Shown piece by piece: positions 7,811 through 32,676 of a stretch of 64,000 bases of DNA. Both the position numbers and the translations under genes were made by a program. This DNA is from Marsupella aquatica. Taxonomy: Eukaryota > Plantae > Marchantiophyta. The first letter of the stretch is position 1; the number at the start of each line of letters is the position of its first letter. A model generated the notes under the pieces. It ran no database searches, was not told the DNA's origin, and was given only the letters and a program-made list of their open reading frames with translations. Where the stretch lies: the NCBI GenBank assembly GCA_973895155.1, contig OZ316895.1, positions 20,722,803-20,786,802 of the forward strand. Direction: 5' to 3'.

Positions 7811-8345
7811 CAATTGTCTATTTAATTACTATAGGGTTGAATACAAAAAATATTGACCACCCTTTACAACAATTAATAGGATTGTTGTATATTACAATGT
7901 CTACTGGACATTCATTTGAATGTCAATAATATCATGCCTTAATATCACCAAACTAAGGCCCGGGCACTGTCTAACTAATATTATATCTTAAATAAACTAA
8001 CCAACTAACTAACTTGTCTATTTAATTACTATAGGGTTGAATACAAAAAAAGATTGACACGCACCAGGGTGCGTGACCTACAATCATAGTATCACCCTTT
8101 AATTTGTTAGTTTCTATTGTTTTGACTCAATCAGGCATGGAACCATATAAAATCAAAAATCATTGAAAGTTGAGTTCACTTGAAGGTGTAACTATAATTA
8201 TTATTTATTAATAGGATTGTTGTATATTACAATGTCTACTGGACATTCATTTGAATGTCAATAATATCATGCCTTAATATCACCAAACTAAGGCCCCACT
8301 AACTAATATTATATCTTAAATAAACTAACCAACTAACTAACTTAG
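7811..8345. repeat. Subterminal direct duplications inside the left end
   Basis: ~140 bp ATTAATAGGATTGTTGTATATTAC...CAACTAACTAACTT at ~7872-8015 and ~8207-8343; TTGTCTATTTAATTACTATAGGGTTGAATAC at ~7814 and ~8014. Confidence 0.8.
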
Positions 8346-8437
8346 ACGATAAGACTTGTCTAAACTTGAGTTCTCTAGCTACTACTATTCTGAGTTGCCT
8401 TTTAAACTGTATGCTAAACTACATGCTTCATTACTGT

Positions 8438-11400
8438 CTAGGATTTGTCACTTGCTATGCATGTCAAGAGATAGTCTCTAATTGCCTTGGCAGCAACATT
8501 CTTTGGAATTCCTACCAGCCGTGTCACTGGTCCTTTGCGTGCTTTGAAACACCACAAGGCAGAGGAAACATCTATTGTCTCAGCTTCCTTGTATATTGAA
8601 GTTGGATCACATTCCCATTTCTTATCCCAAGAATCTGCCCACCACTCTCTTGGCTGCCAGCCTGATTGACCACGTTGCTTCTTTGCCATAAATGGTCTAA
8701 ACCACTCAACGCCACATACATGAGTAAGAAGGTTTTGTTCATTCACTGGTCCTTCTACCACATCTGTAACAACTAACCCCATATGGACGGGATAAACATC
8801 CAGGTCTGAGTCGTCCGGCCGTACCAACACATAACAGCCCTTCACAACATCAACCCTAGGGTTAAAACTCTCAGGAGGTTTATCTTTTGCTGGTCCCACA
8901 TAATCCACTGTTGCCTCCAACTCACATGCCACATTTCGATATTCTGGTGGAACGTGCTCTCTCCATATTGATAAAGGCCAAAACCCGTATTCCAAGTTGT
9001 GTGCACCTTCAGGTTCATATTGCACCTGCTCACCCTGTAGAGTATCTACAATGTCATTCCAATAATTGATGAGAGTTGTCCAACGTCGCTTTGGTTCTTC
9101 CTCTTTTGTTCGCTTTAGAATAAACTCAAAGAATGACACATGCTTCTTCAACCCTGTCAGCACTTTAGGAAGCAATTTCAACTCCATCATTGGTAGCCGT
9201 TTGGGCACCCCAATTGGGATGTGAGGACTTTTGTCATCTTTCCATGACCACATTTCAATACCTTCCTTGGGTAACCATCCCTGATCAGTTGACTTCATTT
9301 TGTATTGGAAGCATGGCATATTATCATGACGAACATAGAACCTAAACAGCCTGGGTTTTAAATGCCCCACCCCAATGCCTCAGGGCCCTTCAACATGAAT
9401 AGAGCTAAGTAGTTTTTGAAATCTGGGACCTCTTGTAGAAAATGTGGGATTGCATTGGGTGTCCTTGCTCTCATGAACAAGGACATTAACTCAGGCAATG
9501 AGTATGTGGGGTTATGCATCATAGACTCTGAAAAATGCCCGAACATACTGTCAACGTCCTCATGAGTATGCCCAACCACCATAAAACCAAGATGAACCTC
9601 TTCAAACACCTCCCTTGCCGTCAACAATGACAAATAAGCCATCATATATTTGTTCTTGTTGTCTGAGGCACAATTATCCAGTTGTAGCTTCAATACTCGT
9701 GGAAGGGGCCTGAACTTTGGTGCCTCAGGTGCTGCATCACAATGTAACAATCTCATAATGCTTTTAAATAAAACCCTAGTCAGACCCTAAACCCCAATTT
9801 AGGGTTTAGGGTTTAAACCCTATTAATGAAACCTTGGCTAGGAGGAGCAACAACTACACAAAGTAGAGTGTCAGTGTGTGTGAGCTTATATTATTAAATA
9901 ATAATAAATTAAAGGATTGTGAGTAAAGTACCTAGGCTTGAGATGTAGGCAATGTCATCCTCAAATGCTCTAAGGACACTTGCCTCCAAGATATCTGCTC
10001 TCCCAAAAAGGAGGTCTTTAAAAAGACTTGTTGAGTCTGGCCCCTCCACAAGTGATTTGATCATTGGATTTGGGTTTTCCAACATCCTTAGTATTGAATC
10101 AATTGACCCAATAGTGATGTTGACATCACCTGGCCACACTCCAACATGATATTGGGCTATGGCCTTGGGACTATGATGACCATGAGTAAGGATACCAGTG
10201 ACAGTAATTGGGAACTTTTGGGCACCATCCACATGCTTAGGATTGAAGGGCATTCTTGGGAGAGCTGTCTTTGAATGATCCATCTTATCATGAATAAGGC
10301 ATAACACTTCCTTTGGACGATGGATGGACTCATATCTCCAGGTATGATAGCACATTCTTTGCTGTGTGTGGTCTTGGTGATGTTCCTCCTCGTCACGCCT
10401 TAGGCCCTCTAACTCTTCCTTAGCTCCTGTAAGGTTTGCTTTCCGTTGAAGCAACTCACTACAAGTTGTACACTTTGAAAAGTTGTTGCCCTTTTTGTGA
10501 CGTGAGAACTCCCTGAAATACATCTGATGTAGATGACTCAAGGTGGGTTGGGAAATTGGAGGAAGACCAGCCTCCTGGTTGACAACATTAACCCTGTTTC
10601 TAATATTCTCCCAAGTAAGATTTGTTGGCAATTCCCTCAAAACCATCCTTGTATTATCTGCCATGGTTCTCAACTTGGTTGGATGATGATCAGTTGCCTC
10701 CTCAATAATCTCTTTCATTGACATGAACGCTTGAGATAATTTCTCGGACATACGCCTTTTTCCAGCATTACCATGGGTACCCATGTTCATTCCAGCCATC
10801 ACAGTCTTCTTCAAGGCATAAAATTGAGTCTTTCCTCTTGAATGAATGATTCTCCATGCCTCCAAGCACAATACTTTGCCCTCCACTGCTAGAATCCTTT
10901 CTCCAGTACCCAAGTGTATTGTATTTTTAATAGCCTTGATTTCCTCCTCCTTGCGCTCCGCAAAAGATTTTGACCACCACTTTTGCCTAATTGCCATAGC
11001 CAAGTTGCGGTCCAAATATTGGCAACAATGTTCACTACAACAGTCCTTAGTGTTTATCAACAACACATCTTGACGTGCCAAAGATGTGTCTCTTCTAGAT
11101 GTCTGGGAAGATGGACTCTTTCTTTTCCTACTTTTATGGACGTAGGACCGCTCGCCACTTGTTGGAGATGTGTTCCCTCCCATAACTTGCCTGATGTTGT
11201 GGAAAGACAACAAGTTGCCATCCTTGGCAATGAGTTGGTCCATCGACCAAGCTTTTAAGCAATCTCTATGCTTCAGATGATCTATGGTAGCTCCCTCAAC
11301 AAAATCATTGATCAGAATTCCCACATGTGTATTCCCAAGGGTGACATCCCCAAGCTTCACTATAGGATCTAGAACATGTATAGTTGCCACTGCAAAAATC

Positions 11401-11846
11401 AACTTGTTCTCATCCACCACCTTTACAGGCATGCCCATCCACAAGGCCTTTGGTAAAACTACTTCCACACCAGACCGACTCTCATTATGGTTGTTCCCAT
11501 CAGAATTTTGATTGACTGGATCTTGATCATCACCAACAATGCCAAACACATCCTCCAATTCCATGGGAGCTCAAAAAAGCTGATTCCTTTCCCATACAAG
11601 GTAACCCCCAATCATGTCCTTCAAAAGTTCGCCATCTTCGCATAGAATGGTCTCGTCAAAAACTTCCTCCAATAGAAGAAGAACTCTGTCCGCCCCAAGA
11701 GGAACATTGTGACAAACCCTGGAAGGATCAAGACTTATCACACGACCTTTTCCAACCTGTTTCTCACGTATGCCTATAATAACTTGTCCGCCTTCCCTGA
11801 TCCAGACTGTCGATGTCACCATAATAATTATGATCCTGCACATCAA
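8438..11846 (-). pseudogene. Sola1-like (DUF7869-type) DDD transposase, spliced, with one in-frame stop and one frameshift
   Basis: ORF 11571-11846 joins 9932-11564 in frame through a TGA. GT-AG intron 9732-9931 joins in frame (..SL-A-PEAP..). Frameshift near 9370 into ORF 8438-9370. Catalytic-type motifs HDKMD, LQLDNCASDNKNKY and GHTHEDVDSMFG, plus Cys/His-rich KCTTC and CC.EHCC segments. The 5' exon was not located. Confidence 0.8.
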
Positions 11847-11899
11847 AGAATATCACTGTAAGCATACAGGCCTGTCACGTCCGTCAATTTCACTGCACT

Positions 11900-12480
11900 A
11901 TCCTGTCACGTTGGTCAATAAGCAGAATGTAGTCAATGCATTGCGCTGCACGCGTGACCCTAGAGGTACCACACATACTGGCAACAGACTATGCATGGTC
12001 CATCAGTCATTTCAAATGAATGAGAACAACCACAATCGATTACGATCAATCATTTCACATCCACTCAGAACAAATGAGTGGACAGTCAATAACTACTGAG
12101 GACAGTAATGCTAATAAGCGCCAGTAAAACGTCCATGAACTGCATTGTCCTATCACGACCGTCAATAAGTAGGCAAAATGTAGTCAATGCACTGCCCTGC
12201 ACGCGACTAGTCGCGTGACCTTAGTCAGAGGGTGTAGGGATAACAGGGTCTACGACGTAGAAGCTAGAAGGCTAGGCCCAAACTCTAGCTCGTACTTGGT
12301 ACTTCATAAGTAAGATACGATTGCGCGTGAGACAGGAAGATACAATTACGGATCTAAAGGCATCACACATACCGGTAACAGATTATGCATGGTCCGTCAG
12401 TCATTTCAAGTGAATGAGAACGACTACAATCGATTACAAACAATCATTTCAACTCCACTCAGAAAAATGAGTGGACAGTA
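11900..12480. repeat. Imperfect duplication upstream of the transposase
   Basis: GTCAATAAG...AATGTAGTCAATGCA...CACGCG..GTGACC and CACACATAC.GG.AACAGA.TATGCATGGTCC...AATGAGTGGACAGT each occur twice (~11914-12090 and ~12160-12480). Confidence 0.75.
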
Positions 12481-12864
12481 CCAGTTTACCAATGAGTGGA
12501 CACCGGACAGTTAGTAACTACTGACCCTCATAAGAAATCTCAGTACTTCACTAGCAATCAGTATTCCCGGGGCGGTTGCCAAACGTGAAATTAAAGCCAT
12601 AATTAGAGGATAACTGAACTTCCTGCCAATTCTAATACGCGCCAGTCAAACGCGCACTCTCTTCTAGAAACCACTATGTACAATGACTAGTGGAGACTAA
12701 GCAGTATAAAGCATTGAGATGATCCCTATTGCTCATTCCCCCACGCATTCCACTTTCTGGCTACTGGATAATCTATTCGCACATCAGCTCTCTCATTTCC
12801 AATTCTTAGTCTCGGTCCGCATCTCTTGTTTGAAGGGCGATGACTACTCCGCTGAGCTCGAAGA

Positions 12865-13624: not shown

Positions 13625-15135
13625 CTGACCTCTAAAACATTTTTGCGACCGGGCGCGTGATGAAACGAAGACGTTGGTTTTAAAATAGATTTCTGGCCAA
13701 TTCGTTAGGCTGTTGACTACAATAAACAATATCAAAAGACACGAGATAAATTGGTTCACGCGACTGTGCGCGTGATGAACTACATGTGTAACCGAAAAAT
13801 CAGGTCATCCTACTAAGTTGAGATCAGGCAGATCTGAGAAATAAAGGGCGATTACGTCTAAGAGTGCAGAGTTTTCGCTGACCTCTAAAACACTAACACG
13901 ACCGGGCGCGTGATGAAACGAAGACCTCGATTTTAAAATATATTTCTGGCCAATTCACTAGGCAGTCGACTACAATAAACAATATCAAAAAGACCTGTGA
14001 TAAATTGGTTCATGCGACTGTGCACGTGATGAACTACATGTGTAACCAAAAACAGGTCATCCTACTAAGTTGAGATCAGGCAGATCTGAGAAATAAAGGG
14101 CGATTACGTCTAAGATTGCAGAGCTTTTGCTGACCTCTAAAACACTAACGCGACCGGGCGCGTGATGAAACAAAGACCCCGGTTTTAAAATATATTTCTG
14201 GCCAATTCACTAGGCAGTCGACTACAATAAACAATATCAAAAAGACCTAAGATAAATTGGTTCATGCGACTGTGCGTGTGATGAACTACATGTGTAACCA
14301 AAAAAATAGGTCATCCTACTAACAAGTTGAGATCAGGAAGATCTGAGAAATAAAGGGCGATTACGTCTAAGAGTGCAGGGCTTTTGCTGACCTCTAAAAC
14401 ATTAACGCGACCGGTCCCGTGATGAAACGCAGACCTCGGTTTTAAAATAGATTGCTGGCCAATTCGCTAGGCTATCAACTACAATAAACAATATCAAAAG
14501 ACACGAGATAAATTGGTTCACACGACTGTGCGCGTGACGAACTACATGTGTAACCAAAAAAATAGGTCATCATACTAACAAGTTGAGATCAGGAAGATCT
14601 GAGAAATAAAGGGCGATTACGTCTAAGAGTGCAGAGCTTTCGCTGACCTCTAAAACATTAACGCGACCGGGCGCGTGATGAAACGCAGACCTCGGTTTTA
14701 AAATAGATTTCTGGTCAATTCGCTAGGCTATCGACTACAATAAACAATATCAAAAGACACGAGATAAATTGGTTGAACACGCGACTGTGCGCGTGACAAA
14801 CTACATGTGTAACCAAAAAATAGGTCATCCTACTAACAAGTTGAGATCAAGAAGATCTGAGAAATAAAGGGCAATTACGTCTAAGAGTGCAGAGCTTTCG
14901 CTGACCTCTAAAACATTAACGCGACCGTGCGCGTGATGAAATAAAGACCTCGGTTTTAAAATATATTGCTGGCCAATTTGCTAGGCTATTGACTACAATA
15001 AACAATATCAAAAGACACGAGATAAATTGGTTCACGCGACTGTGCGCGTGATGAACTACATGTGTAACTGAAAAATCAGGTCATCCTACTAACAAGTTGA
15101 GATCAGTCTGATCTGAAAAATGGACCTCGATTACG
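13625..15135. repeat. Internal tandem array, ~6 units of 252-258 bp
   Basis: CTGACCTCTAAAAC starts at 13625, 13878, 14130, 14387, 14643, 14901; each unit has two ACGCG-N6-CGCGT-like palindromes. Confidence 0.95.
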
Positions 15136-17644
15136 TTTTATTTTTCTAGGCCGTCGACTATAATAAACAATAGCAAAACATACGGACAACTATACTTGAA
15201 CGCCATAAAATTTTAGACTAGAGAATTCATTCGGATCCTCTACTAGTACTTCTGTATACATTGCTTCTGTAGTTGCCTTAAATCACGCATTCAATGCATG
15301 AATTGAGTCAATGAAGTTATGGTCCAATTTCTCACTCCTCCTCGTCCCAGCCAACTAAGCCTCCTCCTTCGAACTCCAATTTCCTTGAGTATCGTGACCG
15401 AATCCCACCACCAGAGAATGACAACTTGTTGATCGTATCAAGATCAAAATCCTCGACCAGACAATGATTTCAGAATAGCCGCTCTTTGTTGATCCGCTAG
15501 AATGCTTCGATGAATGAGGCAGACTATGGAGGTTCTAAATGTTTGTCGTCTCGCTTTGTCGCAACTCTCTCGCTTGATCGGATGTGCTCTCCCCAAGATT
15601 GAAGGTGATACAACAAGAACTGCGCCAGCGTTGCTTGAATGAGCTCCGCCTCCGACTGGAATAGTTGAATGACCCAATCTGCTCCACCTCAAATGTGCCT
15701 TGGATCAGCCTTTGTTGAGAGCCCAGCTAGTATCCTGGTCAGGAGAAACTGAAAATGAAGAATGACCCGTGAGCAATGAGATCAGTCTATTGACTCCATG
15801 AAGGATGTGTTCATCTGGACTCGATTTTGATTTTGAAAATTGGTTGAGTCTCCAGTCATGAGAATCATTGTACAGGATTGATTTTGAATATCGGTTCTCG
15901 CCGACCGTGAGAATCGTTTTACGTTGTTTAGAGTATGGGTTTGAATTGGCAAGATAGAGAGTGGAGTACGGATCCGGATCCGACGGTCTCCACTACCAAA
16001 ATGGAATGATTTTGAAGTTCGCCTCCACTACGTGATGGAATGATCGTGAGAAAGTTGTCATTCATTCACATTTTGGATTTGAATTGGCAGATATAGTGAA
16101 GATACGGATCCGGATCCGGATCCGGGGGTCCCCACTAACAATCTTTCATAGTTGCATAATTACTGGTTTAAATTCAAATTGGCGATCAAATAGAAATCTC
16201 CTTTAGTATGGCAAATCAAAAGGAATCCGATAATCTTTTTTTCACGATTGCATAGTTTGTTAAGTCGATGGTGGAGTGTACAGAGATCATCTGGAACCTT
16301 CTTGTTGCTAGGCTGTTATTAGGGTTATGCTAAAACAATACCCTAATTAGTCCTTCCTTAGTGTCGGCGCCCACGGTCTCGAGTTCACTATTCATTGTTG
16401 TTGTTTCTCGCTCCCTAGACTTTCGCGTGCCTACTCTCGTCGCTCTCGCTCTTGCTCTTGCTCTCGCTCTCACTCCTGCCTTGGATTTCATTTTTGTCGT
16501 TGCAGCTCGTTCGTTGTGGTCAGGTGCTTGTCGGCGCGTTGCAGCTCTTAGTAGTTGTCGATTGTTTCGACCAGGAGCTCGTTGGCGCGTTGCAGCTCGC
16601 ATTTACAGCTCGTATTCACTTCTAGTTTGCTCGAAGGGATTCTTAGGAGCCCGTTGGGTTCGTTGCAGCTAGTTTTTTGGGAGTGCTTGTATCAGCTCGT
16701 GTCAGCCAATTTTAAGCTCATATCAGCTCGATCAACGTGTTTCAGCAGCTCGAACTACTTTTTTGCAGTTTGTTTCAGCTCCTTCCATTCAGCATTCAGG
16801 TTTGTTTCACCTCTTTGAATCTTCAGGTTTAGTGCGCTTTTATTCATGCTCAATTTGCCTATCCACAGCTTTCATTGTACTTTTGAAAGAGTGTTTTTAA
16901 CTCGGCATAATGAGTTCCTTAGCATTAAGCACATGTTATTCAATTGGTGGCAGCGAAGCTCTATGTATAGAAGTATAGAAACTGTGTTGTTGTTGCTTAG
17001 CATATTAATATCTTCAATCTTATATTTACTTTCTGGAATGCCGCAGCAAGGTCTTCAAGTGCTTGGACGTCAATCTCTCAGACGATTACATCAATTTTTC
17101 AGAATTCAGGTGCAATTTCTACATTTCCTGCTGGTGTTGATTGTTGTTTGCTAAAATTTCTCTTGATTGTTAAGCTGAGTTTTCATAATGCGGTTTGTTT
17201 GTAAACTCAAATATGTGTGAATCATACAAACTCACTAATTAAAATACAACCTGAATCGTCTTAAGTAAGTCATTACAAACTTGCACGTTGTGAATTTAAT
17301 CATATAAACTCTCATGTTATGTGAATCTCATTACACTGAATCCTTTAATTGACGAATACAACCAGTAGACTGCTAAATTGAATCATCTTAGCTGAATCAT
17401 TCTCTAAACTTCTGATATATAATAGTTTCACAATGACAGAGCTCAAACATCTGAATTATTGTAAAGTTCATGAATGAATACAAATGAATGAATACAAATG
17501 AATGAAATCATGCTTACTCGGATTTCCTTGTCCGTACGGGTCAGTAATCACAGTTGTATCACTATATTATTCTAGTGTCCAAAAGTTGTTTGAGCTGTTG
17601 ATGCGACCAGTCGCGTGAAAATATTGTGAGGTTCCATTTAGGAT

Positions 17645-18307
17645 CAATTGACGCGACCAGTCGCGTCTGAGGTAGCTCTCTCATTGACTGGTTCTGTTAG
17701 AGGAGGTAAGGTTCCTTTTAGGACCAGTTGACGCGACCAGTCGCGTGTGAGAAGGAAACTGGATAGATTTACTGAGTGCGTACCATATCCAAATCTCCAC
17801 AAGGAAGGTTCAGTGGATATAGTTGACTCTACCAGTCGCGTCTGAGGTAGCTCTCTCATTGACTGGTTCTGTTAGAGGAGGTAAGGTTCCTTTTAGGACC
17901 AGTTGACGCGACCAGTCGCGTGTGAGAAGGAAACTGGATAGATTTACTGAGCGCGTACCATATCCAAATCTCCACAAGGAAGGTTCAGTGGATATAGTTG
18001 ACTCTACCAGTCGCGTCTGAGGTAGCTCTCTCATTGACTGGTTCTGTTAGAGGAGGTAAGGTTCCTTTTAGGACCAGTTGACGCGACCAGTCGCGTATGA
18101 GAAGGAAACTGGATAGATTTACTGGGCGCATACCATATCCAAATCTCCACAAGGAAGATTCAGTGGATATAGTTGACTCGACTAGTCGCGTCTAAGGTAG
18201 CTCTCATTGACTGGTTCTATTAGAGGAGGTAAGGTTCCTTTTAGGATCAGTTGACACGACCAGTCGCGTCTAAGGTAGCTCTCTCATTGACTGGTTTTGT
18301 TAGAGGA
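17645..18307. repeat. Internal tandem array, ~3.5 units of 175 bp
   Basis: GGTAGCTCTC at 17671, 17846, 18021, 18196 (period 175); each unit carries GACGCGACCAGTCGCGT and a variant copy. Confidence 0.95.
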
Positions 18308-18448
18308 CGAAGCAATATTTATGATTTGTCACGTTGTGACCCGAAAAAATCACAGTCTCTCAAAGAATTGTTTATACATTCTAATTTGTAGACGTGACCA
18401 GTCGCGTGAAAATAATCTCTGGGATATGTCATTTGGCTGAAAAGAGTC

Positions 18449-19000
18449 ATGGGCGAACCTGGTCTGGAGAGCTTCAGATATCTATGCCCAATATTTGACG
18501 TTTTGGACAGAAGCCAAGATGGTCTACTGACGGGATATTCTGTATTTGTTGAAACACTACTACCTGGACTTCCAGATTTCATTGTCGCAAAATTGATATG
18601 GCCTCGGATCAAGGAGACTTTTAATTCCTCGACTAATGCAGGAAATTTCTCAATAAAGGAATTGGATGAGTTTGTAGGACTATCTTCGGTGTGTCACAGA
18701 TGGCACCACCTTGTTGGGAATACCTATCTTCTTGGTGTAATCAAGTTGAGTTTATTAGATTTGGCTTTCCCACGAAATCCTACTAAACCGATTGGAAATG
18801 AGTCTCTCTCATCGACAGTTCAAAGTTTCTTCCAGAAATACCCAAGAATTAAATTCATGGGGTCAATGTCCAGAGATCTTAGGGAACTCTTCACGAAGAC
18901 TTACGATGCTCTTCACCCTCTTGAAAAATGGAAATTTACAGTCAGATGCCACGAAGTTGGATACCTTGAGGGTGACATCTACGCTTTTAAGGAATTCTAG
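18449..19000 (+). CDS. Transposon cargo: F-box-like protein/unit 1
   Basis: LLPGLPDFIVAKLIWPRI ... LSSVCHRWHHLV, the plant LIPGLPDD-type F-box signature with an insertion. Confidence 0.6.
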   Translation: MGEPGLESFRYLCPIFDVLDRSQDGLLTGYSVFVETLLPGLPDFIVAKLIWPRIKETFNSSTNAGNFSIKELDEFVGLSSVCHRWHHLVGNTYLLGVIKLSLLDLAFPRNPTKPIGNESLSSTVQSFFQKYPRIKFMGSMSRDLRELFTKTYDALHPLEKWKFTVRCHEVGYLEGDIYAFKEF

Positions 19001-19065
19001 TTAACTTACGTGACCAAGCGCATCGTATGTCTTCTAACAATGTTTTGTGATATGATAAAAGTAGG

Positions 19066-19631: not shown

Positions 19632-19683
19632 TGGATAGGTTCTTGTTCTTAATCTTTTCCATATTATGTTGCAGTCCTTTGAC

Positions 19684-20196: not shown

Positions 20197-21820
20197 TTTG
20201 GCACGACGCGACCATGCGCGTGTTAGTATTTTATAATAAATGTTTAACTTTCAATATTTGTCTGTTTCAGAATGGATCCTACCGGAACTTCAAAGCGGAA
20301 AAGAGACTCATCTAAAATTGCTTCTCGTAAGAAAGCCAAGACAAAAATGACTCCCGCGGAGACATCCATACTTGCATATCGAGGAAAGTCAATCAGAGAG
20401 AGAACAATGGAGACAAAGAGTATCCATCTCTTTGAATCGACTGAGATATCCGATTTTGGAATAGTCGTTCGCAATGGGGCTGTCCGTCTTGTGGTGGCAA
20501 AAAATGATAAAGCTACAATTTTGGAGAGATCACAAATTCTTGGATGTTTCTTTGAGAAGAACATGAAAGTTAAAGAGTGTACAGAGGGATTGGTTCTGCT
20601 AGTCAGCGACGACCAGCAGGAGGACAAAATAAGCATTTGTTTGGATCGAACGCAATATGTAACCTTCAATTAGCCCAGAATCAATGATCTTCTAGGTGCA
20701 AGGCATGCCTTGGAAAAGGTTACTAGTGTGGGATATCCTTCCGATCCAGAGGGATCAACGGGAGATTTGATTTGTCAATACATTATTGACGTACTTGAGT
20801 TCCAGAGAGTTCCTTTCAACCAGGGATTTCGCTTGGGAAAGGCCCCGCCAGTGACCAAGGTTGAAGTATACTCGGCAGAGAATCTTCCGAAAGTAATTAC
20901 CTCAGCGAATGTCGGGGCTCTGTTCGATTCTTTCCTCAAAGAATATAGTGCTATGAATATATTTAACAGTAAGTCATTTTTTGTTGAGACATCACGTTCT
21001 CATCTTGCACTGGACCACATCAAGTGCCGAGAGTGGAATCAGGATTACACAGATAGGCTAAAGAATTCACTCCTCTCTCATTTGGCTATAAAGTTCAAAA
21101 AGCGATGCTGTTTTTTAGTCCCTGTGAAGTGGGTTCAGTCGGAGGCCGACAGAGATCCCGACTACAATGGGGCGCCCTACGATTCGGCGCCAAAGGAGGA
21201 GGACATTATGACCAGTCATTTTTGGATACTTGGAGGCCAGTACACAATAATGGCGTACAAATTGCTGAAAGAGGACGACAAAGTCAGCCAAGTTGTACGA
21301 GACGCTTGCGGTACTGTAGAAGCTGTAATGTTTTGGGCAACGCTCAACAACAACAATAATGTTCATTTGATGAGATTATCGAAAGCTCTGAACCACTGTC
21401 ATCAAACATCAATGGAAGAAGGACAGTTTCTCACCATTGTACGACAGTGTCGTAATATCTGGAACTCATTTGGGCGGCCTGGATCACATTATCGTCATCC
21501 AAATTGGAAGGTATATAAATAGCCCTCTTCGATCACATTATCGTTTAAACTTTTGTCACCGGTCGCGTCAAGCTTAGAATTGTCATGTTTCCATTGTTTT
21601 TCAGGTATTTATGAGAGCTACAAGTTTTGTTTGCCCATGGGCTCAAATGGGGAAGAACGAAATGATGAAATTTGGAGAATTGGCTCCGTTTCTCTTTACA
21701 ATGGAGGATGAAACATTCAAGAAGTGGATGGAGGTCTACGAACTATCAAGGACAGGAGAGCTTGTAATTTACAACGGAATTTTACAGAGGGACGCCGTCA
21801 AAATTGCAGATACACACTTA

Positions 21821-24496
21821 TGTCACCTGCTTATCAAACAATTTACACGACAAATACGTATTTACTCCTAAAAAATTTTGTTATCGTATGACGGGAACGT
21901 GGAGGGACGCTATTAGGATTCTATTATATGTAGGATGAGTATGTTTATTTCCGCTCCCGGAAATGTAATTTTTGATCAAGTCTACTGACTAGCCGCTCTG
22001 CTTTTGATCAAGTCCCATGGACTACGCCACACACACACTCCTACTGGTCATCGGTGGAGTGTTGTCACCACCCCTCCCTACTCACATGGTTGACCAAACC
22101 GTGCAAGGATTTCTTAGACGTTTCTTGGGGAAAGAACACAATCTTGAACCAGGAAAGGTAACACCACACCCAAAACTTGAGGAATCAAACCAAATCCATA
22201 TCTTTTGGCAAAACGTCGTAACACATTGCAAGGACAACCCGGCCTCCTGCCGTATGCCCAACTACTGCCTCACTGGGGCAAGTGCTACACCTCTACCTCA
22301 CTACTCTGGTTTGATTCCCTCTTCTAGCTATGAGCTAACTTCCCTAAGTAAACACTAGACTGAGTTCCCCCCCTCACTACTCCGGGGCTCTCCCCCTAAA
22401 TACCAAGAAAACACACCAAAGCACCCCTCACGGGGCCACAACGATGGCGGCTTACCCTAGCGGCGCCGCTAAACCCTTCACTAAGAAACCCCTAAACCAA
22501 AAGCATGTGGCACACACATGCTTCTAAAACCCTAAACCCTAAACTAACAATGGGGCCGATGGTGCCTTCGACGGCGCCCCAACATTACTCTGTAAACCGT
22601 GAAATTGCAAGGAACCCCACAATGGCCGAAACTAGGTGCCCTTCCAGTTGCACTTCTGAGTTCACCCCTGGATAGCCCTCCTCCTCCTGATCATGAATCA
22701 CTCAACCGCTCTTGAAACGGACATCGGACGACCAAGTTATGGTCGTTTCAGTATCTTGTAAACCCAACTTCGTCGGGCCCTAACTTGCTCATCCTGGCTC
22801 CGTTTGAGGAGCGTCGCCTCTTGTTGGAATCAGCTCCGCGAGCTCTTTCCAACAAGCCCGTGAGTGACCCCTCACAAAAAAGTTGGAAAGTCAAGGGGCC
22901 ATACAACCACGTCCGTACGACCACTCTAATCCTCCTCTTCACTCACGGTGCCCTGGCTTGAGCCCGGTGAGTTGGTCTCCTCATTAGTCCTCCTCCTCAC
23001 TCACGGTGCCTCCTCCTCACTCACGGTGCCCTGGCTTGAGCCCCGTGAGTTGGTCTCCTTATTAGTCCTCCTCCTCACTCACGGTGCCTCCTCCTCACTC
23101 ACGGTGCCCTGGCTTGAGCCCCGTGAGTTGGTCTCCTCACCGCTCTCCATTGGAGTGGATACTACTCTGCTAAACAAGGACTCACTTGAGTCCACCACCT
23201 CCTATCCTATCTATCTACCTTGCCTACCAGCCTCAATTCTCCTGATCGCCACCTCTGGTCCGTTGTAAAAGGGTCCGTTGTAAAAGGGGGGGCCCTATAA
23301 TTGTCGAAACTAAAATTTTCTCAGAATTCACTTCTGAAAACATATCTGAGGAGCCCTCCTCTTCCTGATCACGGTTCCGTAAACAGTGCACAAAACGGAG
23401 GTCAAACGGCCAAGATATGGTCGTTTAAGTTTTCACGGGGCACCGTCTCCCTCCGTTTCGTCCGTACAACACCAGGGGGCCCCGGCTTGCAAAACACAGA
23501 TCACGGGGTCCCCGTATGTGTTGCTACCTCCTCCTTCCAAAGCCGGGATCTCCTGTCGTACGGACGTCCGTACGGCCTCAAAAACCCCTATATTCTCAAA
23601 AAACGCGATCAGTTGTATCTCCCCCGTCTTAGCTCCGTTTTGGCCGTGTGACACATCGTTGGATTCAGCTCGGCGAGCTCATTCCAACAAGCCTGTAGAC
23701 TCCTGATTTTGAGATGGTCAAAAATCTGATGTTCGTACAACCAGGGTCCGTACACACGTTGAAAGCAAGCACAAGAGGAAAAGGGTTTAGGGTTTAGGTA
23801 TGGGTGGAAACCCCACAAGTGAGAATAGAAAAAAAAGGGAAGGAAGAAAGTGTGAGGGCCCCTTCTACGGAGTGCCCCTCTACGAAGTGGGGAAGGGAAA
23901 GAGAGCAAAAAACCATGTGAGGACCACGCAAAGGGTGAAGGGGAACACAAGTGTGGGAACCCCTTCCTTCTAAGGGCCTCCCACCATCACTACTCCAAGA
24001 TTGCCTAGTTTGCCGTTTTATGGGCGTTGAGGTCCCTCGAGATGTCACTGTTTGATATAGACCTAAAATTAAAGTTTCGCATGAGGCTCATTGAGGGCTT
24101 CAAAATGAATCCAAACATGACCATGTTTGGAATAGTACTAGCACAGCAACGTCTGTTTTAAGTTTCAACGTTTTCTATATTTTGGTCATTCTTCCCGTTT
24201 TGTGCCTTACATGGAGCCTCCGACCAGCCCCCACCCCTCCAAGATGCCCACACCTTGGCTCCAAGTCCTTGGGTTGCCTTGTGGCCTCCTCCCCCTCAAT
24301 GGTTCCCTTGTCATCCATCACCGCCCAACACCCCTCTCAACTTCGTTTCGTCTGGTTGTCGCATCCATTTATTAAAACTAACAAAAATGAAAATTTTGAA
24401 AATCCAAACACTTTTACTACACCTACTTGTCTTTCTACTTATATACGCAATTATAAGTTATCACTAAGTTACTACCGGGTTTGGGGCCCTGTCACA
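21821..24496 (-). repeat. 3' LTR (~2.6 kb) of the Gypsy element, containing a 78-bp tandem repeat x3 (~22945-23140)
   Basis: Starts TGT directly after the PPT on the minus strand; non-coding; CCCTGGCTTGAGCCC at 22951, 23029, 23107. Confidence 0.65.
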
Positions 24497-26054
24497 TAGC
24501 TCCCCTCTTAATTGCGAAGTGCCCCCGCGAGCACCATACTCCTCCTCCGTGTAGTACTTCTTTAGGCGTTCTTGATTGATCCGTGTGTTGAGTAGTTGCC
24601 CCTCCAATGTCTTGAGCTGAACCAATCCGTTGGAGTAGACGGTGTCTACTACGTGGGGCCCCATCCAATGTGTATGCAGCTTCCCCGGGAAATGCATGAA
24701 ACGGCTGTTGTAGAGGAGCACCAAATCTCCCTCCTCAATTCCAAAGAAATATTTCTCCGGATATAGCTTCAAGCAAGTCTCCCGGCACCGTTGAAAAGTC
24801 AACCGTAAATGTTCCATGCGATTGACCCGCTTGCCGTAGACAGCAAAATCATCAATGAAGATTTCTGGGAACCTCCGAAGGAAATCATGGAATATGTTCA
24901 TCATAAGCCGCTGAAACATACCAGGGGCATTGCACAACCCAAAAGGCATTCTTTGGAATGCAAAAATCCCCCACTCCGTAGTGAAAGCCGTCTTGAGTTG
25001 ATCCTCCTCCCGTATCCAAATCTGGTTGTAGCCGGAGTAACCATCTAGGAAGCTGTAAATCTCCCAACCGGCCACCATGTCTAACATGATATCAGTAAAT
25101 GGCAGCAGGTAGTGATCCTTCTTGGTGGCGTCATTCAGCTTCCGGAAATCTTGGCACACCCGTATCTTCACCTTACCGTCTGGCCCCTTCTTCTTGGGCA
25201 CAATCAAGATGGGTGATACCCACTCACTGTGCATGACCGGATAAATGAAGCCCGCATCCAACAACCGATCAATCTCCTCCTTCACCATGAGTGAGGACTT
25301 GGGATTGAGACGGTATTGGCGGTGCCTCACATGCCGTGCCCCGGATATCAAGTCAATGCTGTGCTCACCAAACTCAGGTGGCACTCCTTCCAAATCTTGG
25401 TGGCTCCAAGTAAAATACGTCTTGGTACTCCATTAACAACTCTTGAATAGTACGTTTCTCCGTAGCATCCAGCTTACTACCGATGTTGAGGGTCTTGCCT
25501 TCACCCACCTCCACCTTTGTGTACTGCTTCGGCCTGATCACGTCTAGCTTGTTACGTGTCTCCTCATCAAAGGTCTCCTCCAACCGTGCTAGTCGCATTC
25601 CTCCATACACCGGTGCATCGCTATCCTGCTGGTCTGACTGAGTTGGGGGTGGGTCTTTTGTCACATGGGCCATCATTTCTTCCATGTCAGATTCTTTGTA
25701 TTTGTAATGTGACAGTAGCTCCTCTCTAAATTCTTCATCCAAGAGGTCATTCAACCACTTCTCCCTCCGTTCATCGTCAAACAGGATGGCTTGAGCTTCC
25801 TGTCCCTCCTCACTCGTTCGTTCCTCCTCCTCAGTATCAACAAGCTGGGCCATTGGTGGTGCAAGTGGTTCTTCCCTGGTTTTCCTCTGCACAACATAAC
25901 TTTGGCGACGTGGTGCTTTTGTAACTCCCTCCTCAAGGGTAGCAGCTTGTGGGCCAAAGACATCTTCGTCCGTCAGATGAGAAATCAACTTTACCATGTA
26001 TACTTCGTCCTCGTCCTCATCTGAGGTGACCTCTGAATCATATTGCTCTTCCAT
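24464..26054 (-). pseudogene. pol: Gypsy pol fragment (protease-RT linker, RT, integrase tail)
   Basis: ORFs 25374-26054 and 24464-25393 are frameshifted; RNase H and the integrase core are absent. Confidence 0.85.
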
Positions 26055-29028
26055 AGAGGTAGTCTCCCCTTCAGGTGACTCTGCTGACCAGGGAATGATA
26101 ATAGTGGGAGTTCCAAACCAAATTGCGGGTCAAAGGAATGATTGATTGCTTTAAGCTCGACAAGATGGTGCTGAAGCAGTTGAGAGATGCGTTGAGTGGT
26201 TATCCGAAGAAGTGCTTAAATGTAAATATTAGTAATGATAATTTGTTGAAGAAAATCGACCCGATATTCTACAGGTTGGTGGAAGGAATACAGAAATCAA
26301 TTGATAGTCAAGGAAACCAACTAGTGCGGCCGGTCGGTGAGAGGCTGAAATTGCGATCCCTTCAGGATATACAAAATTTTGGGTTTGCAGACTGTATCAT
26401 ACGTGAAGACAAGAACCTTGCGAGCTTGATTTATTTTGATCCCTCATCAATGGGAGATTTGCGTCCACCAAATTGCTCATTCTTATTTCGTGCTACTAGC
26501 AAGATAGGGGCAAAACCACACCATGTGGTTATTATTGTAGCCTCTCCCGTTGAGTCTTACTTAATCAAACGGGAATTAGGGAAGTACACACACTACGTTG
26601 CTGTCAATAGCCATTATATTCAGAAGCGACCGAAGGAGAAGAAGCTTATTGTAACCTACGTTTTTCACAACTTGGCCTTCAGCACAATGGGCGATCCACA
26701 AGCCCTCGAGTTCCAATTGGTCTCCAAATATCGGATTGAGAAGATAGCCAATTTTGAAGAGAGCGGCGAGTTCACGACACCTTCCCCAGAAAAGATACTT
26801 CCATTCTTTGAAAGTATTGTTAGTCAATTCGTCCAATGTGGGGAATGGGCTATATGCTTTGGTGAGGGAACAAACTTGATCCAGTGCTTAATGGTAAGTT
26901 TTGAGATTTATATTTTGGGGTTTCGATTTTAAGATTATTTAGATTATTATATTCTCAATTAATATTGTGAACTAATTTCGGCTTTTTTTACAGGATGCTG
27001 GATCCAATGTAAAATATTACTGCCCTGTGGCAACGCATAGGGAGTTGTCTTGTTTCTTGCAACACACCACGGCGACAATTGATACAACGCTGTCATTGAT
27101 TGACCCAGTACGGGCTAGTATAGAAAAATGTATAGATAAATTAATGAAGTACCGTCCATCCGTAACTGCTCTCAGGGCTGATGTTTTGGATGTCCTCCGC
27201 GAACAACATATCCCTGATAATATTTGTAATCAATTATTGCAAGAGTATGCACTCTTTGAAGATTCCGATCGATTGTACATTTGACCAACGGAGTACCCTA
27301 GTGGGCCAATCCAAGGTAGGTTACTTTTGAAACCTCTTACTTTTTATTGCATCACGCAAACATGCGCGTGGACATTCATAACATTTCTTTTCACGCAAAT
27401 ATGCGCGTGAGTCATTCTTATCAAATGATCTGATTTTATTCAGATCAAGTCGACTGCGGCTTCAATGTTGAGGATGCAGGAAGCAATGGTGATGCGGATG
27501 GTGAGGGGGAAGGTGACGCGGAAGGTGACGCGGAAGGTAACGCGGATGGGGATGTCAATGACCAAGATCCAGAATGGATGACCGATACACAGAACGACGT
27601 CGGAGATTCTGACAATAGAGGAGATGAAGAGAGTGACGGAGAGGAGATGAAGGACGTTGAGGACGCTGATGAAGAGGACGAGGAGATAGAGGGTTCTGAG
27701 GACGTTGAGGACTCTGATGAAGAGGCCACACAAGAGCCTCGACATGAGGTGGACCGAGAGGAGGCGGCCCGGCAGGAGGAGGCCAGAGAGGAGGCGGCCC
27801 GGCAGGAGGAGGCCCGGCTGGAGGAGGCCCGGCTGGAGGCGGCCCGGCAAGAGAAGCTTCAAAAGAAGGAGGCAGCCCGGCAGGAGGTGGCCCGGCAAGA
27901 GGCGCTTCAAAAGAAGGAGGCTAAGAAGAAAAAGGCAGCAGCTAGAAAAGCAACTGCCGCGAAGAAGAAGGAGAAAGCCGAGGCTGAGAAAGCCGAGGCT
28001 GAGAAAGCGGAGGCTACGAGAGTCCTTTTAGTGATGGAGGCAAATAGGGCCAAGGCGGAGAGTGTGGCGGCTGAGAGGCTGCTGGCCAAGAGGATGGCGA
28101 ACAAGACCGCAAGACCGGAGAGGGTGGAGGCGGAGAAGTTGGAGGCAGAAAAGGTTGATTCCGCAAGACTGGAGAGAGAAGAAGCCGCAAGACTGGAGAG
28201 AGAAGAAGTCGCAAGACTGGAGGCAGCAAGGAAGGAGGCCGAGAGGGCCAAGGATCTTTTGCTTATTCCTGAGGCACAATGTCTACCGAAAATACAGTTG
28301 AATTTAAAGAAGCCTTCTTCACCCTCAGTTCGCCCGGAGTTTGAATTTAACGATCCACCCTTATGTACGGTCTTGTTGGATGATTGGAATAAATATTCAC
28401 CGGAGCAGCTTCGAGCCCAGGCAGTCCTTGCTTTGCAATATTGGAAGGGTCTTTTGATTACCAAGGAGAAGACTGCCACTGCATCTAGAATGGAGACAAT
28501 CATCAATAATGTCCGCTTTTCCGAGAATCGAGTGCAAGACCTGGGAATGTCTTTGGCACCAGACTCGGCTCAAGTCGTTAAGAGACTAACAACTGACTTG
28601 ACGCGATCGGGTTTGTGGTCTTGACCCTGATATATTGCAGAGGTCACTCGCGCAAAAATTGTGGCACCGGATATTTTGGAATCGGATTCCCAGATTGTGG
28701 AATATTTGAATCAAATGCCACAACCATTTGAAGGTCTTCCCGCCTCATCGCTCCAACCTTCGCAAACTGGTCCGGTGGAGCGATCACTGCGGTCTCGAGG
28801 AGGGCTGAAGGATGTTGTCGCGATTGAGGCACCCAAGAGATCAGCTGCGAAAAGGCCGGATCCACCCAATCCAAAGGTCATTCGCAAGCTATAAGCTTAA
28901 AGTTTCTATTATAGACGTCATTATTTTATTATTGATTTGTTATTGTTTCTGTTTTCTGAGGTAGAACCCTTAGGCTATAACCTCAGTACGTTATTTGAAG
29001 GCGTACTAAAATCTCTGTTTTTTGCAGT

Positions 29029-29720
29029 TTTTTGAAAATTTGGCTAGTCGAATAGATCAATGCCTTGATCCTTCTAAGGATATGGAAGAGCTATTGACCA
29101 AGTTCTTACAACACTCGATCAAGAGGAAACATATGATGTGTCTGAGACCGCGCGAGTTGCTCACTGATGATATAATTAACGCTTATTTAAGTTTTCTCGA
29201 ACTGATTCTCGATAGAGTTGGAAAGTCAGACCTTGTCAAATTCTTCCAAACACACCATTTTGAGCTTCTCTCCATGGATCCTACCATTTTCGACGAGGAG
29301 AGAGCAGCTTGGACAAAGGAGTTTCCGCTAAAAATCAATGAATACGACAAACTGGTCTTTCCAGTACAGAATGTTGTGAAAGAACATTGGTCATTGGTAG
29401 TTGTGTATCCGAAGGAGAAACAGTTAGAGTACCTAGATTCTCTAGTTCATAATCGACAAAATCCTGGGGTGCTAGATATTGTTGGGAAGTACTACGCCGA
29501 CGAAATTGGCTGGAGAACTGGTGTCAACTTGGATCTCTCAGGTTGGGAACGGATATATCGGAATGATATTCCTCACCAGAGTGACGGCCACGTACAGTTG
29601 TGGTGTGTTTATCTTGAGATACGCCAAGTGCTTGTGTCGAGGAAACAAAATTAATTTTTCTGCGGATCAAATTGAGAAATTCCGTAGGGAGATAGTCTTG
29701 TCGTTATTTGACATGGACTT
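29029..29720 (+). pseudogene. Ulp1/C48 SUMO-protease domain of the cargo gene
   Basis: LTDDIINAYL, EHWSLVVV (catalytic His), YLDSL (Asp), PHQSDG then CGVF (Gln/Cys) after a frameshift near 29590. Confidence 0.85.
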
Positions 29721-30084
29721 CCGCAAGCCGACGTCCGCAAGTAATCTAGTTATCGGGATCCGTGCTGCTATGATTGACATTTCCGGCGGAATTCCAGCAC
29801 TGAACGACCGTCTTGTACAGGTAATACACTTCATTTCAGTGTCTCTCTTTGTAGTCACGCGACCGTCCGCGTTATGAACTTATTTTCATTTCTTAATATT
29901 TTACAGAAGCCTATCCCGAAACCCCCTGATCGAGTATCGAAGGCACCAGTCCGGAAGTCCGGTGATCGTCCGGAGGCGGGAAACAAACAGACCGTTCTAG
30001 TACGTTCTCCAAACCCTGCGGCACAAAAATCACAGGTACAGATGGTGCCTAATCCATCAGCAAAGAGGTCACCGGTTCAAAAGA

Positions 30085-30812
30085 GACTTGTAATTTTTGA
30101 TCTGAATCGGGTACTTATCTGGTCAGAGAAGATCAGCCCTGGGATGCCCATTTGGTCAAGGGGTGTGAGACAGACGCACAAGGTCATCTATCCAAGGCCT
30201 GATTTAATGGAATTTCTTGAGAAGGTGGCAGATCTATACAACATTGCGATCTGGTCGTGCATGTTCAAACGGAATATTCTATCTTGTGTAAGGCTGATAC
30301 TTTGACCCAAAGTTTTGAAACGTATTAAATTTATATGGGGACAAGAATCAACTCGACTTATTGGGAAGAATAATAATGACATCCCCTTATTTGTCAAATG
30401 TCTCTCCGACATTGCCGCCGATATTAAAGATTACAACATCGAGAATATCATTCTTATCGATGACGCTACATATAAGACGAGCCTTAATGACTTCTATTCA
30501 TCGCTGTATCCCGATGCATATTTTGGGCTCGATGATGACCTGTTTTTTAGAAAGAAACTATATCCATATCTATGCGACATGTCAATTGACAAGTTGACAT
30601 TCCACGAGCTCCTTAGTGGATATGGGATTCCAACGTTCTCTCAAGAAAATCTTGAGAAAGATTATATTGATAAGACGAATCTTTGGAGGAGAAATGTGAT
30701 CATTCGTAATCAGGGGAATAAAGACCATTTAGAAAAGTTTGACAAATTTATGAAATACTTATCTGCCGAAAAAGACCATGCTATAGAAGCCCGGGATAAG
30801 TCCAATAAGTAA
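30085..30812 (+). pseudogene. FCP1/NIF-like HAD domain 1
   Basis: LVIFDLNRVL, RPDLMEFLE, IAIWS, FVKCLSDI, NIILIDD; in-frame TGA at 30303. Confidence 0.75.
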
Positions 30813-30943
30813 ACATTTATTATTTATTATCAATTATTATTTATAAATTGATTGAAATTGAACTTTATATTTTGGGAGTGACGCGCCCGGTCGCGTGGTT
30901 GTTTGCAATTGCATAATATGAGAATCGAATTGTTCATTTATAG

Positions 30944-31650
30944 GTGTCTAAGTGGAGCAGGTCGCGTCAACTTCTAGTTTTAGGACTGGAAACTTCCTGT
31001 GCTCTGTTTCAAAATATACTCCTCAGCTCAAGTCGACACCCGGAATTCGTATCGGATCTCTATGTGTCATTCCGAGGCCGCATCTTCATGATCTTATAAA
31101 ATTCTGTTATGATCATTTTGATGTGATGGTCTGGTCTATTCTCGACGATAAACTGGTTTATCAGATACTTTCAGAAGTGTTGTCGAGCACCGACTTGTCG
31201 CAGCTGATATATGTGTTCACGCGGGATCATTGCTGGAATCTTGGTTATGTGAAGAAAAATTATAAGACTGTTGTCTTCAAATCTATCGAGAGACTACGTG
31301 ATATGTTTCAAGATTATCGACCAGAGAATGTAATCCAGATTGATGCCTGTCCTTCCCATACATGCTAGACAGCTGTATGCGGATTATTGTTTGCTAAGTC
31401 GTTTCAAGGATCGTTGGATGATGTCTTTTTGAGGGATGACCTCATTCCATATTTACGAAAGCTATCAAATTCAGGGCTTTGTCTTGCGTTCGCTAACAAG
31501 TTTGATTATCCCATCTGGTCGATTAGAAATCTACATCGAGATTGGGATCTGAATGAGGATATGTGGGAGCATCTGTACGTGCAGAGACATGCGGATCAAG
31601 TTCTTATCAAGCACTTCAACAGACGTCACTTATCAATGGCCAGAGTGTAG
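30944..31650 (+). pseudogene. FCP1/NIF-like HAD domain 2
   Basis: PRPHLHDLIKFCYDHFDVMVWS, VFKSIERL, ENVIQID; in-frame TAG at 31366; probable N-terminal frameshift. Confidence 0.7.
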
Positions 31651-31736
31651 AGGATGTTTTCTCTGTAATATGTGATGCGACCATTCGCGTGACTACATCC
31701 ATACGGGCTCATGCATCTTCTTGTGTTTCTCTACAG

Positions 31737-32464
31737 GAGATTCATTGCAGCAAAGAAAATGGGCTCATAGTTTTAGACGTGGAGCATCTACTCTGTTACA
31801 CTGCACCGCACTCCCGACTGATGGCGGTCTCAACTGGAATTCGGATTGGGAATATATACATTTTTCCAAGGCCTCATCTTCACAAATTCTTGAGATTCTG
31901 TTTTGAGAATTTCGATGTAGGGATCTGGTCCTCTCTTGGGAAGAACCTTTTAGATCATATTTTAGCATCTATTTTTACTGCGATGGAAATGGCCTCATTT
32001 AAGTATATTTGGGATTAGTCTCATTGTTACTTTGCGATGGGGTGACATCAAATAAGCAGATATTTTTGAAGTGTTTTGAGAAGGTTGGAATTTATACGAA
32101 GGCGTATCTGCAGCAAAATATAATGCTTATCGAATCCGATGCATTTCATGCTTGTTTCGATCCTGTTGTTGGATCATTATTTCCGCCCAAGTATTTTGGG
32201 TCGGTCGACGACAGTTTCCTGATTAACTTGCTGATTCTATATCTTAGCAAGCTAGCAAACTCTTGTGAGCCACTTGTCATTGCCAATGGAAGAGATTATC
32301 CTGATTGGTAAGTTAAATCTATTTTTAGAGATTATGATTATAATCATACTCTATGGGAAGACCCTGTGATTCAGAGGCATGGAGATAGATATCTAGTAGA
32401 GCAATTTAACAGACGCCCAATTTTGGACGCTTCCAAAATAATAGTCAGCATGAGATCAGATTAA
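31737..32464 (+). pseudogene. FCP1/NIF-like HAD domain 3
   Basis: LIVLDVEHLL, PRPHLHKFLRFCFENFDVGIWSS, QNIMLIESD; frameshift near 32010 and stop at 32309. Can be spliced in frame to domain 2 by intron 31645-31736. Confidence 0.7.
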
Positions 32465-32676
32465 TTTGTATTGTTGTTCTAGAAACCATTTGTAAACTCC
32501 TTATATACTGGTTATCATATATAAAGGATCTCAAAGATTTATTTCTCTATTATTATTATTTGCGTGAACATGTCTCTTGGTCCCGTCAAGTTGGATTGGT
32601 TAAAATGTGACATTGCAGTCATTTTCAGGGTTTCACGCGCAGCCACGCGTCATGTCACCCCTTTTTTATTAAAATA

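Follow-up and report, generated by a model that had tools for sequence, protein, structure and literature searches.

Why should one short palindrome recur throughout a large transposon, in its introns, its spacers and two tandem arrays? The question is raised by a stretch of 64,000 nucleotides from Marsupella aquatica (Marchantiophyta; assembly GCA_973895155.1, contig OZ316895.1, positions 20,722,803 to 20,786,802), referred to here as the window, which contains a Sola1-like DNA transposon of 25,134 bp at 7599-32732. The element carries a transposase gene and, on the opposite strand, a long cargo gene (Table 1). An earlier note on the window had described the palindrome ACGCG-N6-CGCGT and proposed that it is the cis target of a factor encoded by the element. 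Our analysis suggests, with a probability of about one in two, that the palindrome is the binding site of a predicted ParB-fold protein encoded by the cargo gene, through which the element would mark and regulate its own copies.

A pattern scan of the window found 15 exact copies of ACGCG-N6-CGCGT, all between 12201 and 32635, while the same arms at 12 other spacers (0-12 bases) gave no copies at any of them. Sixty dinucleotide shuffles of 7600-32800 contained a mean of 0.017 exact copies and at most one. With one mismatch in the arms there are 25 matches at spacer 6, six at spacer 8, which are likely to be the same sites read off register, and none or one at each of 14 other spacers. A profile scan gave 31 sites of at least 12 bits inside the element compared to a mean of 0.05 in shuffles, although the profile was trained on 12 of the sites and is to that extent circular. 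The two tandem arrays and their borders account for 22 of the 31, with two sites in every unit of both arrays as the earlier note had said, and no full site occurs in the 4.1 kb at 8075-12200 that includes the transposase gene. All 13 coordinates listed in that note are right: twelve are full sites with 0-2 arm mismatches, among them the copy at 12201, which the exact scan found to be perfect, and 21564 is a right half-site. The Gypsy piece is free of sites, again as described. The 38.8 kb of flanking DNA, host genes included, contains no exact or one-mismatch site, so that the claim of confinement within the terminal inverted repeats stands for the exact scan; the profile adds a single weak match outside, at 33260 (14.8 bits), within a Copia insertion.

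The full form of the site is a dyad, ACGCGAC-N2-GTCGCGT, with the 20-bp consensus TCACGCGACCGGTCGCGTGA. In 14 sites, picked to limit the redundancy of the arrays, the information per base is high in the five-base arms, present to some degree in the inner AC/GT and in two outer bases, and almost nil beyond. The arms and their 6-base spacing are thus conserved as the earlier note had it, but the spacer is not free, being biased to AC-NN-GT, and the two flanking bases are biased too. Of 21 changes in the arms, 13 break base pairing and 8 keep it, which fits recognition of the site as duplex DNA and speaks against an RNA hairpin. The dyad resembles that of parS, which has a 7+2+7 geometry, and KorB likewise has operators on its plasmid. 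There are signs of further sites in other copies of the element: a contig of run X4 steps back by 41 bp over 20182-20222, a segment that includes the site at 20206, possibly because the site is duplicated there, and loose ends in the same run suggest a site near 12363.

The cargo gene was assembled from nine predicted GT-AG introns, which join plus-strand frames from 18449 to approximately 32400 and so predict a single protein of some 2,900 residues. Allowing two mismatches, all seven matches in this gene fall in predicted introns and none in exons, although introns make up only 929 of 9,719 bp (9.6%). Coding constraint accounts for part of this avoidance of exons, but not for the existence of the sites. 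The suggestion of roughly one site per intron holds for seven of the nine predicted cargo introns (five strong, two weak or half), and fails for those starting at 26894 and 28877 and for the transposase intron. Only one cargo intron, 21511-21604, has outside support, because homologues P0053, P0056 and P0058 read straight across it. Ahead of each of the three NIF exons there is a predicted intron that contains a single site (29857, 30881 and 31675). The NIF exons are only 22-33% identical to each other, and the two F-box-like regions (31% identical, E 5e-11; Pfam F-box-like weak, E 0.035) are likewise old paralogues. The three NIF introns and the two F-box introns probably descend from these duplications, and the placements are therefore less independent than they look. 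However, outside the site no similarity (z > 2) was found in any of 36 intron pairs, and retention of the site while the exons and the surrounding intron sequence diverged is a signature of selection.

Related elements have different sites. They were taken as the best 80 of 378 metagenome transposase matches, eukaryote-like, which represent 52 places and nine DNA groups. The window motif is found in none of the 80 loci, but each of five of the nine groups has its own repeated dyads, which mostly have a 2-bp centre and form arrays upstream of the transposase. These include GGTTTGGGTCG in L006, TTACGAACG in L007, TTTACGGACG in L003, and CCACTCG, CCTCTCG and TTCCAGTCG in L010-L014. The large AT-rich group has TGGTG-GC-CACCA, with further sites some 100 bp in from the ends; two other groups have this type in one or two copies, and another two (L001, L029) have none. 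ParB-like remnants were found near the related transposases at two of the 52 places (17-18 bits, compared to 2.1 for the reversed control). NIF-like remnants, also at two places, were the sole tblastn matches when 13 non-transposase queries were compared with the 80 loci, and a Pfam search with 34 upstream frames gave one weak NIF match.

Other features of the relatives may be noted here. In the group of L003:6976, L004:1549 and L009:1644, the intron of the transposase gene contains the group's own palindrome. This transposase is CpG-rich, whereas that of the window is CpG-poor and free of sites. A second type of dyad, TTGCGA-N11-TCGCAA, occurs five times downstream of the transposase (L069:12312-13660, L074:8683-9124) and may belong to another element. 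Both terminal repeats were found at five distinct places, one of which has a duplicated target: this is L025:314-13357, a 13-kb relative in which TCAT is duplicated and the opposite strand has NIF-like remnants.

The candidate for the protein that binds the site is encoded in the cargo exon at 20271-21510. The call is based on 32 homologues, of which P0001, 50% identical, was modelled with a predicted local distance difference test score (pLDDT) of 85; a single-sequence fold of the window exon itself reached 34. Foldseek against the PDB with the P0001 model gave ParB, Noc, PadC or SbnI in all of the ten best rows (E 0.015-0.058), and a viral structure library gave mostly ParB-like proteins (best E 9e-4). 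VIA-align placed KorB first (Z 8.6, root-mean-square deviation 4.2, 116 residues aligned) and PadC at 8.3, the first seven rows being all ParB/Srx folds, while the PH/PTB-like domain was matched at Z 5-5.8. It is concluded from the model that the cargo family has a ParB/Srx fold. The helical region that follows, which is 40-43% identical to three homologues, is a candidate for the part that reads DNA.

The base composition of the element differs between its two genes. The observed-to-expected (O/E) ratio of CpG is 0.22-0.32 in the transposase gene and mostly 0.6-1.0 in the cargo, and NCG makes up 5 of 206 NCN codons in the site-free transposase compared to 69 of 352 in six cargo frames (p 3e-10). 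The contrast fits a long protection of the site-bearing part, as far as composition can suggest it. There is a sharp boundary at the start of the transposase, with O/E 0.12-0.32 in 7599-11570 and mostly 0.6-1.0 in 11571-32732.

We propose that a ParB-fold dimer would read the dyad through the helical region, much as ParB does on parS and KorB on plasmid operators. With arrays placed before both genes and a site in each intron, the full length of the element would be covered at no cost to its proteins. The fused Ulp1, F-box-like, FCP1-like and possible methyltransferase-like domains could then act on local chromatin, and the promoters and the cargo gene would thereby stay unmethylated and expressible, as VANC achieves for VANDAL transposons. 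We consider the ParB-fold cargo protein to be the binder by a narrow preference and, if it is, anti-silencing would be the rather more probable outcome. A wider generalization is tentative and considerably less likely than not: that a land-plant transposon uses self-recognition of the parS/ParB type, in which the dimer loads at parS-shaped dyads present in almost all introns and ahead of both genes, spreads along the element and, through its SUMO protease, F-box, phosphatase-like and methyltransferase-like toolkit, keeps the element unmethylated, and that every Sola1 family of non-seed plants might have its own pair of dyad and reader, forming a second sequence-specific anti-silencing code of plants that is independent of VANC.

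A number of results weigh against this proposal. The fold scores are modest: the best PDB E value is 0.015, and a Z of 8.6 is near the tool background of 7-8. Sequence searches with the ParB region gave nothing usable in the PDB, PHROGs, NCBIfam, Pfam (no ParBc) or phages, and a metagenome scan found it in none of 441 candidates. Box II reads GGQH in all 12 homologues with the motif (of 33 scanned) and GGQY in the window copy, and thus lacks the arginine of GxxR. An R-to-A change in Box II abolishes nucleotide binding, according to a recent report (10.1101/2025.10.10.680097), and H in place of the required R makes a cytidine triphosphate (CTP) clamp doubtful. The KorB alignment extends to model residue 412 (chain residue 184), within the low-confidence tail, where a helix-turn-helix would be at most putative. 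Among the relatives, ParB remnants are limited to the two places mentioned, though most contigs are too short or decayed to tell, and none was found in three consensus sequences of upstream DNA from the largest group. The methyltransferase-like region has no Pfam, NCBIfam, PHROG or PDB match and no named Atlas match. The CpG evidence is also mixed. There is no gradient with distance from the site (rho -0.11, p 0.35; +0.23 if the transposase is left out), the CpG level of a host gene at 3721 is just as high, and the flanks of array 2 are CpG-poor; the L003 and L014 transposases are not CpG-poor, and three old dyad-bearing loci have low CpG throughout. CpGs decay at 7 of 54 positions inside the sites and 13 of 49 outside (p 0.13). 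The same CpG pattern could also result if the transposase has gene-body methylation or if the cargo is of recent origin.

The transposase is a serious rival as the binder, because of the subterminal sites and because such activity has been shown for the AtMu1 transposase and TnpA. The end sites would help it to build the cutting complex, and additional sites in the arrays and introns would let it activate its own element. There are indeed sites about 100 bp inside the ends, at 32635 and, if the 335-bp duplication is allowed for, at 8059, and similarly in L062, L069 and L077, and arrays stand upstream of the transposase in L003, L006, L007, L010, L011, L013 and L014. The transposase is also the only protein common to all 80 loci, but this is circular, as the loci were picked by their transposase. 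Homologue P0004 has a weak Transposase_23 match at its N terminus (E 0.014). According to 10.64898/2026.08.24.746577, AtMu1 transposase and TnpA attach to clusters of motifs and cause demethylation of their own elements, but they act at the termini and not in each intron. Between L010, L011/13 and L014 the outer arms differ while the transposase cores are only some 0.03-0.07 changes per site apart, with the limits that the tree of cores left out the binding domain and that an inner TCG-N2-CGA is common to all three. In the unrelated Plavaka elements, inverted-repeat arrays stand beside a ParB gene (10.1101/2025.02.11.637652), which implies that arrays go with ParB across superfamilies. We prefer the ParB-fold protein because of these arrays, the internal placement of the sites and the occurrence of a parS-shaped dyad beside a ParB fold, and regard the transposase as a possible but distinctly less probable binder.

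The same ParB-fold protein might instead bind in order to restrain, either as a long-range autorepressor in the manner of KorB or as an organizer that arranges the 21-kb element for transposition. In structure KorB is the closest match, and it regulates plasmid genes at long range; Ulp1 and FCP1-like domains might serve to reduce transcription as much as to release it. Against this, the site-bearing part keeps its CpGs, and tens of near-identical copies suit an escape from silencing; neither point is decisive, and we consider restraint unlikely. A host transcription factor with a CG-rich site, recruited to keep the element genes active, would explain why the half-sites all contain CGCG, often as CACGCG, and why sites occur in promoters and introns. 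Candidates would be factors that recognize the CAMTA CGCG box or the CACGCGC type bound by FHY3/FAR1. However, the strict 6-bp spacing of the dyad and the absence of exact or one-mismatch sites from the flanks both argue against it, and a conserved host protein leaves the wholly different dyads of the relatives unexplained, which makes a host factor very unlikely. The least plausible explanation is that the palindrome is an RNA hairpin, the relic of a small mobile intron or a mere by-product of tandem duplication. The concentration of sites at the arrays and the probable duplication of the NIF and F-box introns, which reduces the number of independent placements, are in its favour, but it is contradicted by the dissimilarity of the intron pairs outside the site and by the arm changes that break pairing, and sites also occur at the termini, with flanks that are practically uninformative beyond 2 bp. 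We return to the ParB-fold protein as the preferred binder. The claim that the palindrome is the cis target of an element-encoded factor fits its confinement, its exclusion from exons, its retention in paralogous introns, the relatives' own dyads and the ParB-fold cargo; the identity of the binder and the anti-silencing role we infer.

Features of the element are listed in Table 1. The features expected of Sola1 are present, namely a DUF7869 transposase, a 4-bp duplication and inverted repeats with AACC-like ends; the terminal bases are AACCC here and AACAC in the relatives. At the left boundary, a contig of run X1 (depth 11.8) is identical to the left flank and stops at 7626, and there is a cluster of loose contig ends at 7599. 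A second candidate for the right end, 32779-32781, suggested by an inverted match to GAGAAC, was rejected because there is no duplication there, whereas 7599/32732 gives TGAG. Contigs inside the element have depths of 600-740 in run X1, and the depth ratio indicates about 50-60 copies (X1) or 37-47 (X3), contig depth being no strict measure of copy number and X1 possibly being the window's own sample. Transitions running from C to T predominate among the best 40 of 1,073 and the best 40 of 125 differences between the window copy and the collapsed contigs, which identifies the window copy as a decaying member of a young family. Local duplications surround the left and upstream sites, at 7872-7961/8207-8296 (335 bp apart) and 11960-12073/12354-12467 (394 bp).

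Table 1. Coordinates of features of the Sola1-like element in the window
Feature	Position	Strand	Remarks
Target-site duplication TGAG	7595..7598	+	left copy; right copy 32733-32736
Left terminal inverted repeat	7599..7657	+	starts AACCCC; 81% over 59 bp to 32677-32732
Left subterminal site	8059..8074		symmetric variant ACGCA-N6-TGCGT
Sola1-like DDD transposase	8438..11564	-	one intron ~9780-9930; no palindrome; CpG-poor
Collapsed site	11949..11958		centre lost; in duplicated upstream block; context matches site 12201
Perfect site	12201..12216		upstream of transposase
Tandem array 1	13625..15121		256-bp unit; 12 sites
Tandem array 2	17601..18407		175-bp unit and flanking sites; 10 sites; just upstream of cargo frame
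Cargo exons 1-2	18449..20192	+	two paralogous F-box-like regions; predicted intron 19000-19064 with weak site 19008
Predicted cargo intron	20193..20270	+	GT-AG; in-frame join; site 20206
Cargo exon	20271..21510	+	PH/PTB-like and ParB-fold domains (predicted)
Cargo intron	21511..21604	+	half-site 21564
Cargo exon	21605..21888	+	conserved helical region after ParB
Nested truncated Gypsy piece	21889..26119	-	one long terminal repeat and part of pol; RVT_1 E 2.4e-18; higher contig depth; splits cargo gene
Cargo exons	26120..27315	+	possible degenerate N4C/N6A methyltransferase-like region; intron 26894-26993 without site
Predicted cargo intron	27316..27443	+	two sites, 27354 and 27393
Cargo exon	27444..28876	+	acidic tract and E/A/R/K-rich repeats; next intron 28877-29027 without site
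Cargo exon	29028..29820	+	Ulp1-family SUMO protease; Peptidase_C48 E 4.3e-11; H, D, C residues present; frameshifted here
Three paralogous FCP1/SCP-like (NIF) exons	29821..32400	+	NIF E 2e-5 to 4e-8
Right subterminal site	32635..32650		~100 bp inside end
Right terminal inverted repeat	32677..32732	-	ends GGGGTT, then TGAG

The transposase was identified by DUF7869 (E 1.9e-33), which we take to be a mark of Sola transposases, and its three aspartate motifs, HDKMD, LQLDNC and GHTHEDVD, are conserved in homologues. The window copy is frameshifted near 9370, where it differs from other copies by two bases. Telomere-like plant repeats, AAACCCTA / TTTAGGG, are present in both orientations in the transposase intron (9790-9830). 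Between the transposase and array 1 is a basic open frame of 147 codons (12937-13380) with no family match.

The cargo gene of the window is broken by stops, frameshifts and the 4.2-kb Gypsy piece. Homologue P0058 spans the Gypsy break and matches on both sides, and homologue P0001 is open across the stop at 20671; this stop and the Y in place of a conserved H are lesions of the window copy. The region at 26120-27315 is 28% identical to P0058 over 172 residues. It is possibly methyltransferase-like, in that FDPS and CFGEGT resemble, by eye and by analogy, degenerate forms of DPPY and FxGxG; the top structural row for P0058 is a methyltransferase, with a template-modelling score of 0.31 that is under the bar and a model pLDDT of 0.35. 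The E/A/R/K-rich repeats are likely to form a coiled coil. Active FCP1 phosphatases have the motif DxDxT. Since DLN (30085-30105) and DVE (31760-31780) stand in its place here, these NIF domains are likely to be pseudo-phosphatases. A search for longer homologues gave none among 909 candidates, and a near search gave one in 257.

The element is itself nested in a lower-copy repeat (7250-7598 and 32733-32912; depth about 200 in X1). A Copia element lies 180 bp to its right, with long terminal repeats at 32913-33032 and 37091-37210 that are identical at 117 of 120 positions. Host genes in the window include a mitochondrial carrier and a class I chitinase (hevein and GH19), at 41800-44900 and 53490-55530, between which there are nested tandem repeats of 57-113 bp (50623-51275). 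The chitinase is itself a sign of a land-plant host.

How does this locus compare with known systems? VANC has been shown to bind motifs of Arabidopsis VANDAL elements and to demethylate them (PMC5735166, PMC10398659). The VANDAL motif, like the dyad, is short and family-specific, occurs in introns, intergenic and terminal regions, is amplified in tandem and differs between related families. However, VANDALs belong to the Mutator superfamily and have an oriented 9-mer and DUF1985/DUF287, as against DUF7869, a dyad, a ParB fold and a 4-bp duplication here; neither DUF1985 nor DUF287 was matched in the scanned open frames of the element, the broken stretches being partly scanned. Of the two analogies drawn in the earlier note, parS is therefore the closer. 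Spm TnpA and the AtMu1 transposase bind clustered family-specific motifs at the termini only, with local CG demethylation; the available text of that report (10.64898/2026.08.24.746577) does not mention Sola, ParB or a palindrome. Within the literature cited, self-binding and reactivation in plants have been shown only for VANC, TnpA and a Mutator transposase.

The ParB fold is shared with KorB of RK2 (PDB 8qa8) and with ParB/parS (7bnr). By analogy with KorB, a mobile element's own protein, predicted in our case, would act from dyad sites spread over the element. The cargo protein differs from both in having H for R in Box II, in the lack of any ParA partner seen, and in being eukaryotic, spliced and fused to chromatin-type domains. 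ParB-HTH (helix-turn-helix) methyltransferase fusions have been described in chlorophytes and chytrids (PMC4738411).

The closest systems are algal. Sola1-1_Ec32 of Ectocarpus has a ParB-methyltransferase accessory gene, proposed to bind and modify its own element (PMC12477816). The two elements agree in a length of about 21 kb, a target duplication of 4 bp, termini of the AACC type (AACCG there, AACCC here) and an accessory gene with a ParB-like domain on the strand opposite the transposase. They differ in that the present host is a land plant and its cargo is much longer (about 2,900 compared to 1,104 residues), with F-box-like, PH-like, Ulp1 and three FCP1-like domains; the methyltransferase of Sola1-1_Ec32 has an unconfirmed counterpart here, and the main text of that paper describes no palindrome or binding site. 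Plavaka (EnSpm) of the red alga Bostrychia encodes the ParB-like PAG3 with inverted-repeat arrays beside its gene (10.1101/2025.02.11.637652). Both are giant DNA transposons with a ParB-like accessory protein, tandem inverted-repeat arrays and proposed self-binding, but Plavaka has a transposase of another superfamily and a 2-oxoglutarate (2OG)-oxygenase effector, and its reported repeats are confined to the arrays, with no mention of single sites in introns and near both ends. ParB cargo and inverted-repeat arrays have thus been known as a proposal for algal transposons since 2025, and the present element is a land-plant variant. We found no land-plant case, defined site or such polyprotein in the literature covered; subscription papers were outside its scope, and the bioRxiv supplements may describe the Plavaka repeats.

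If the proposal is correct, a land plant would have turned a prokaryotic chromosome-handling module to the control of chromatin, and family-specific epigenome tools might be derived from it. For the algal accessory genes, self-binding has been proposed without a defined site, whereas the candidate site of the present element is specified to the base. Its intron-only placement, kept across ancient duplications, the relatives' dyads as specificity controls and a young multi-copy family make the proposal directly testable.

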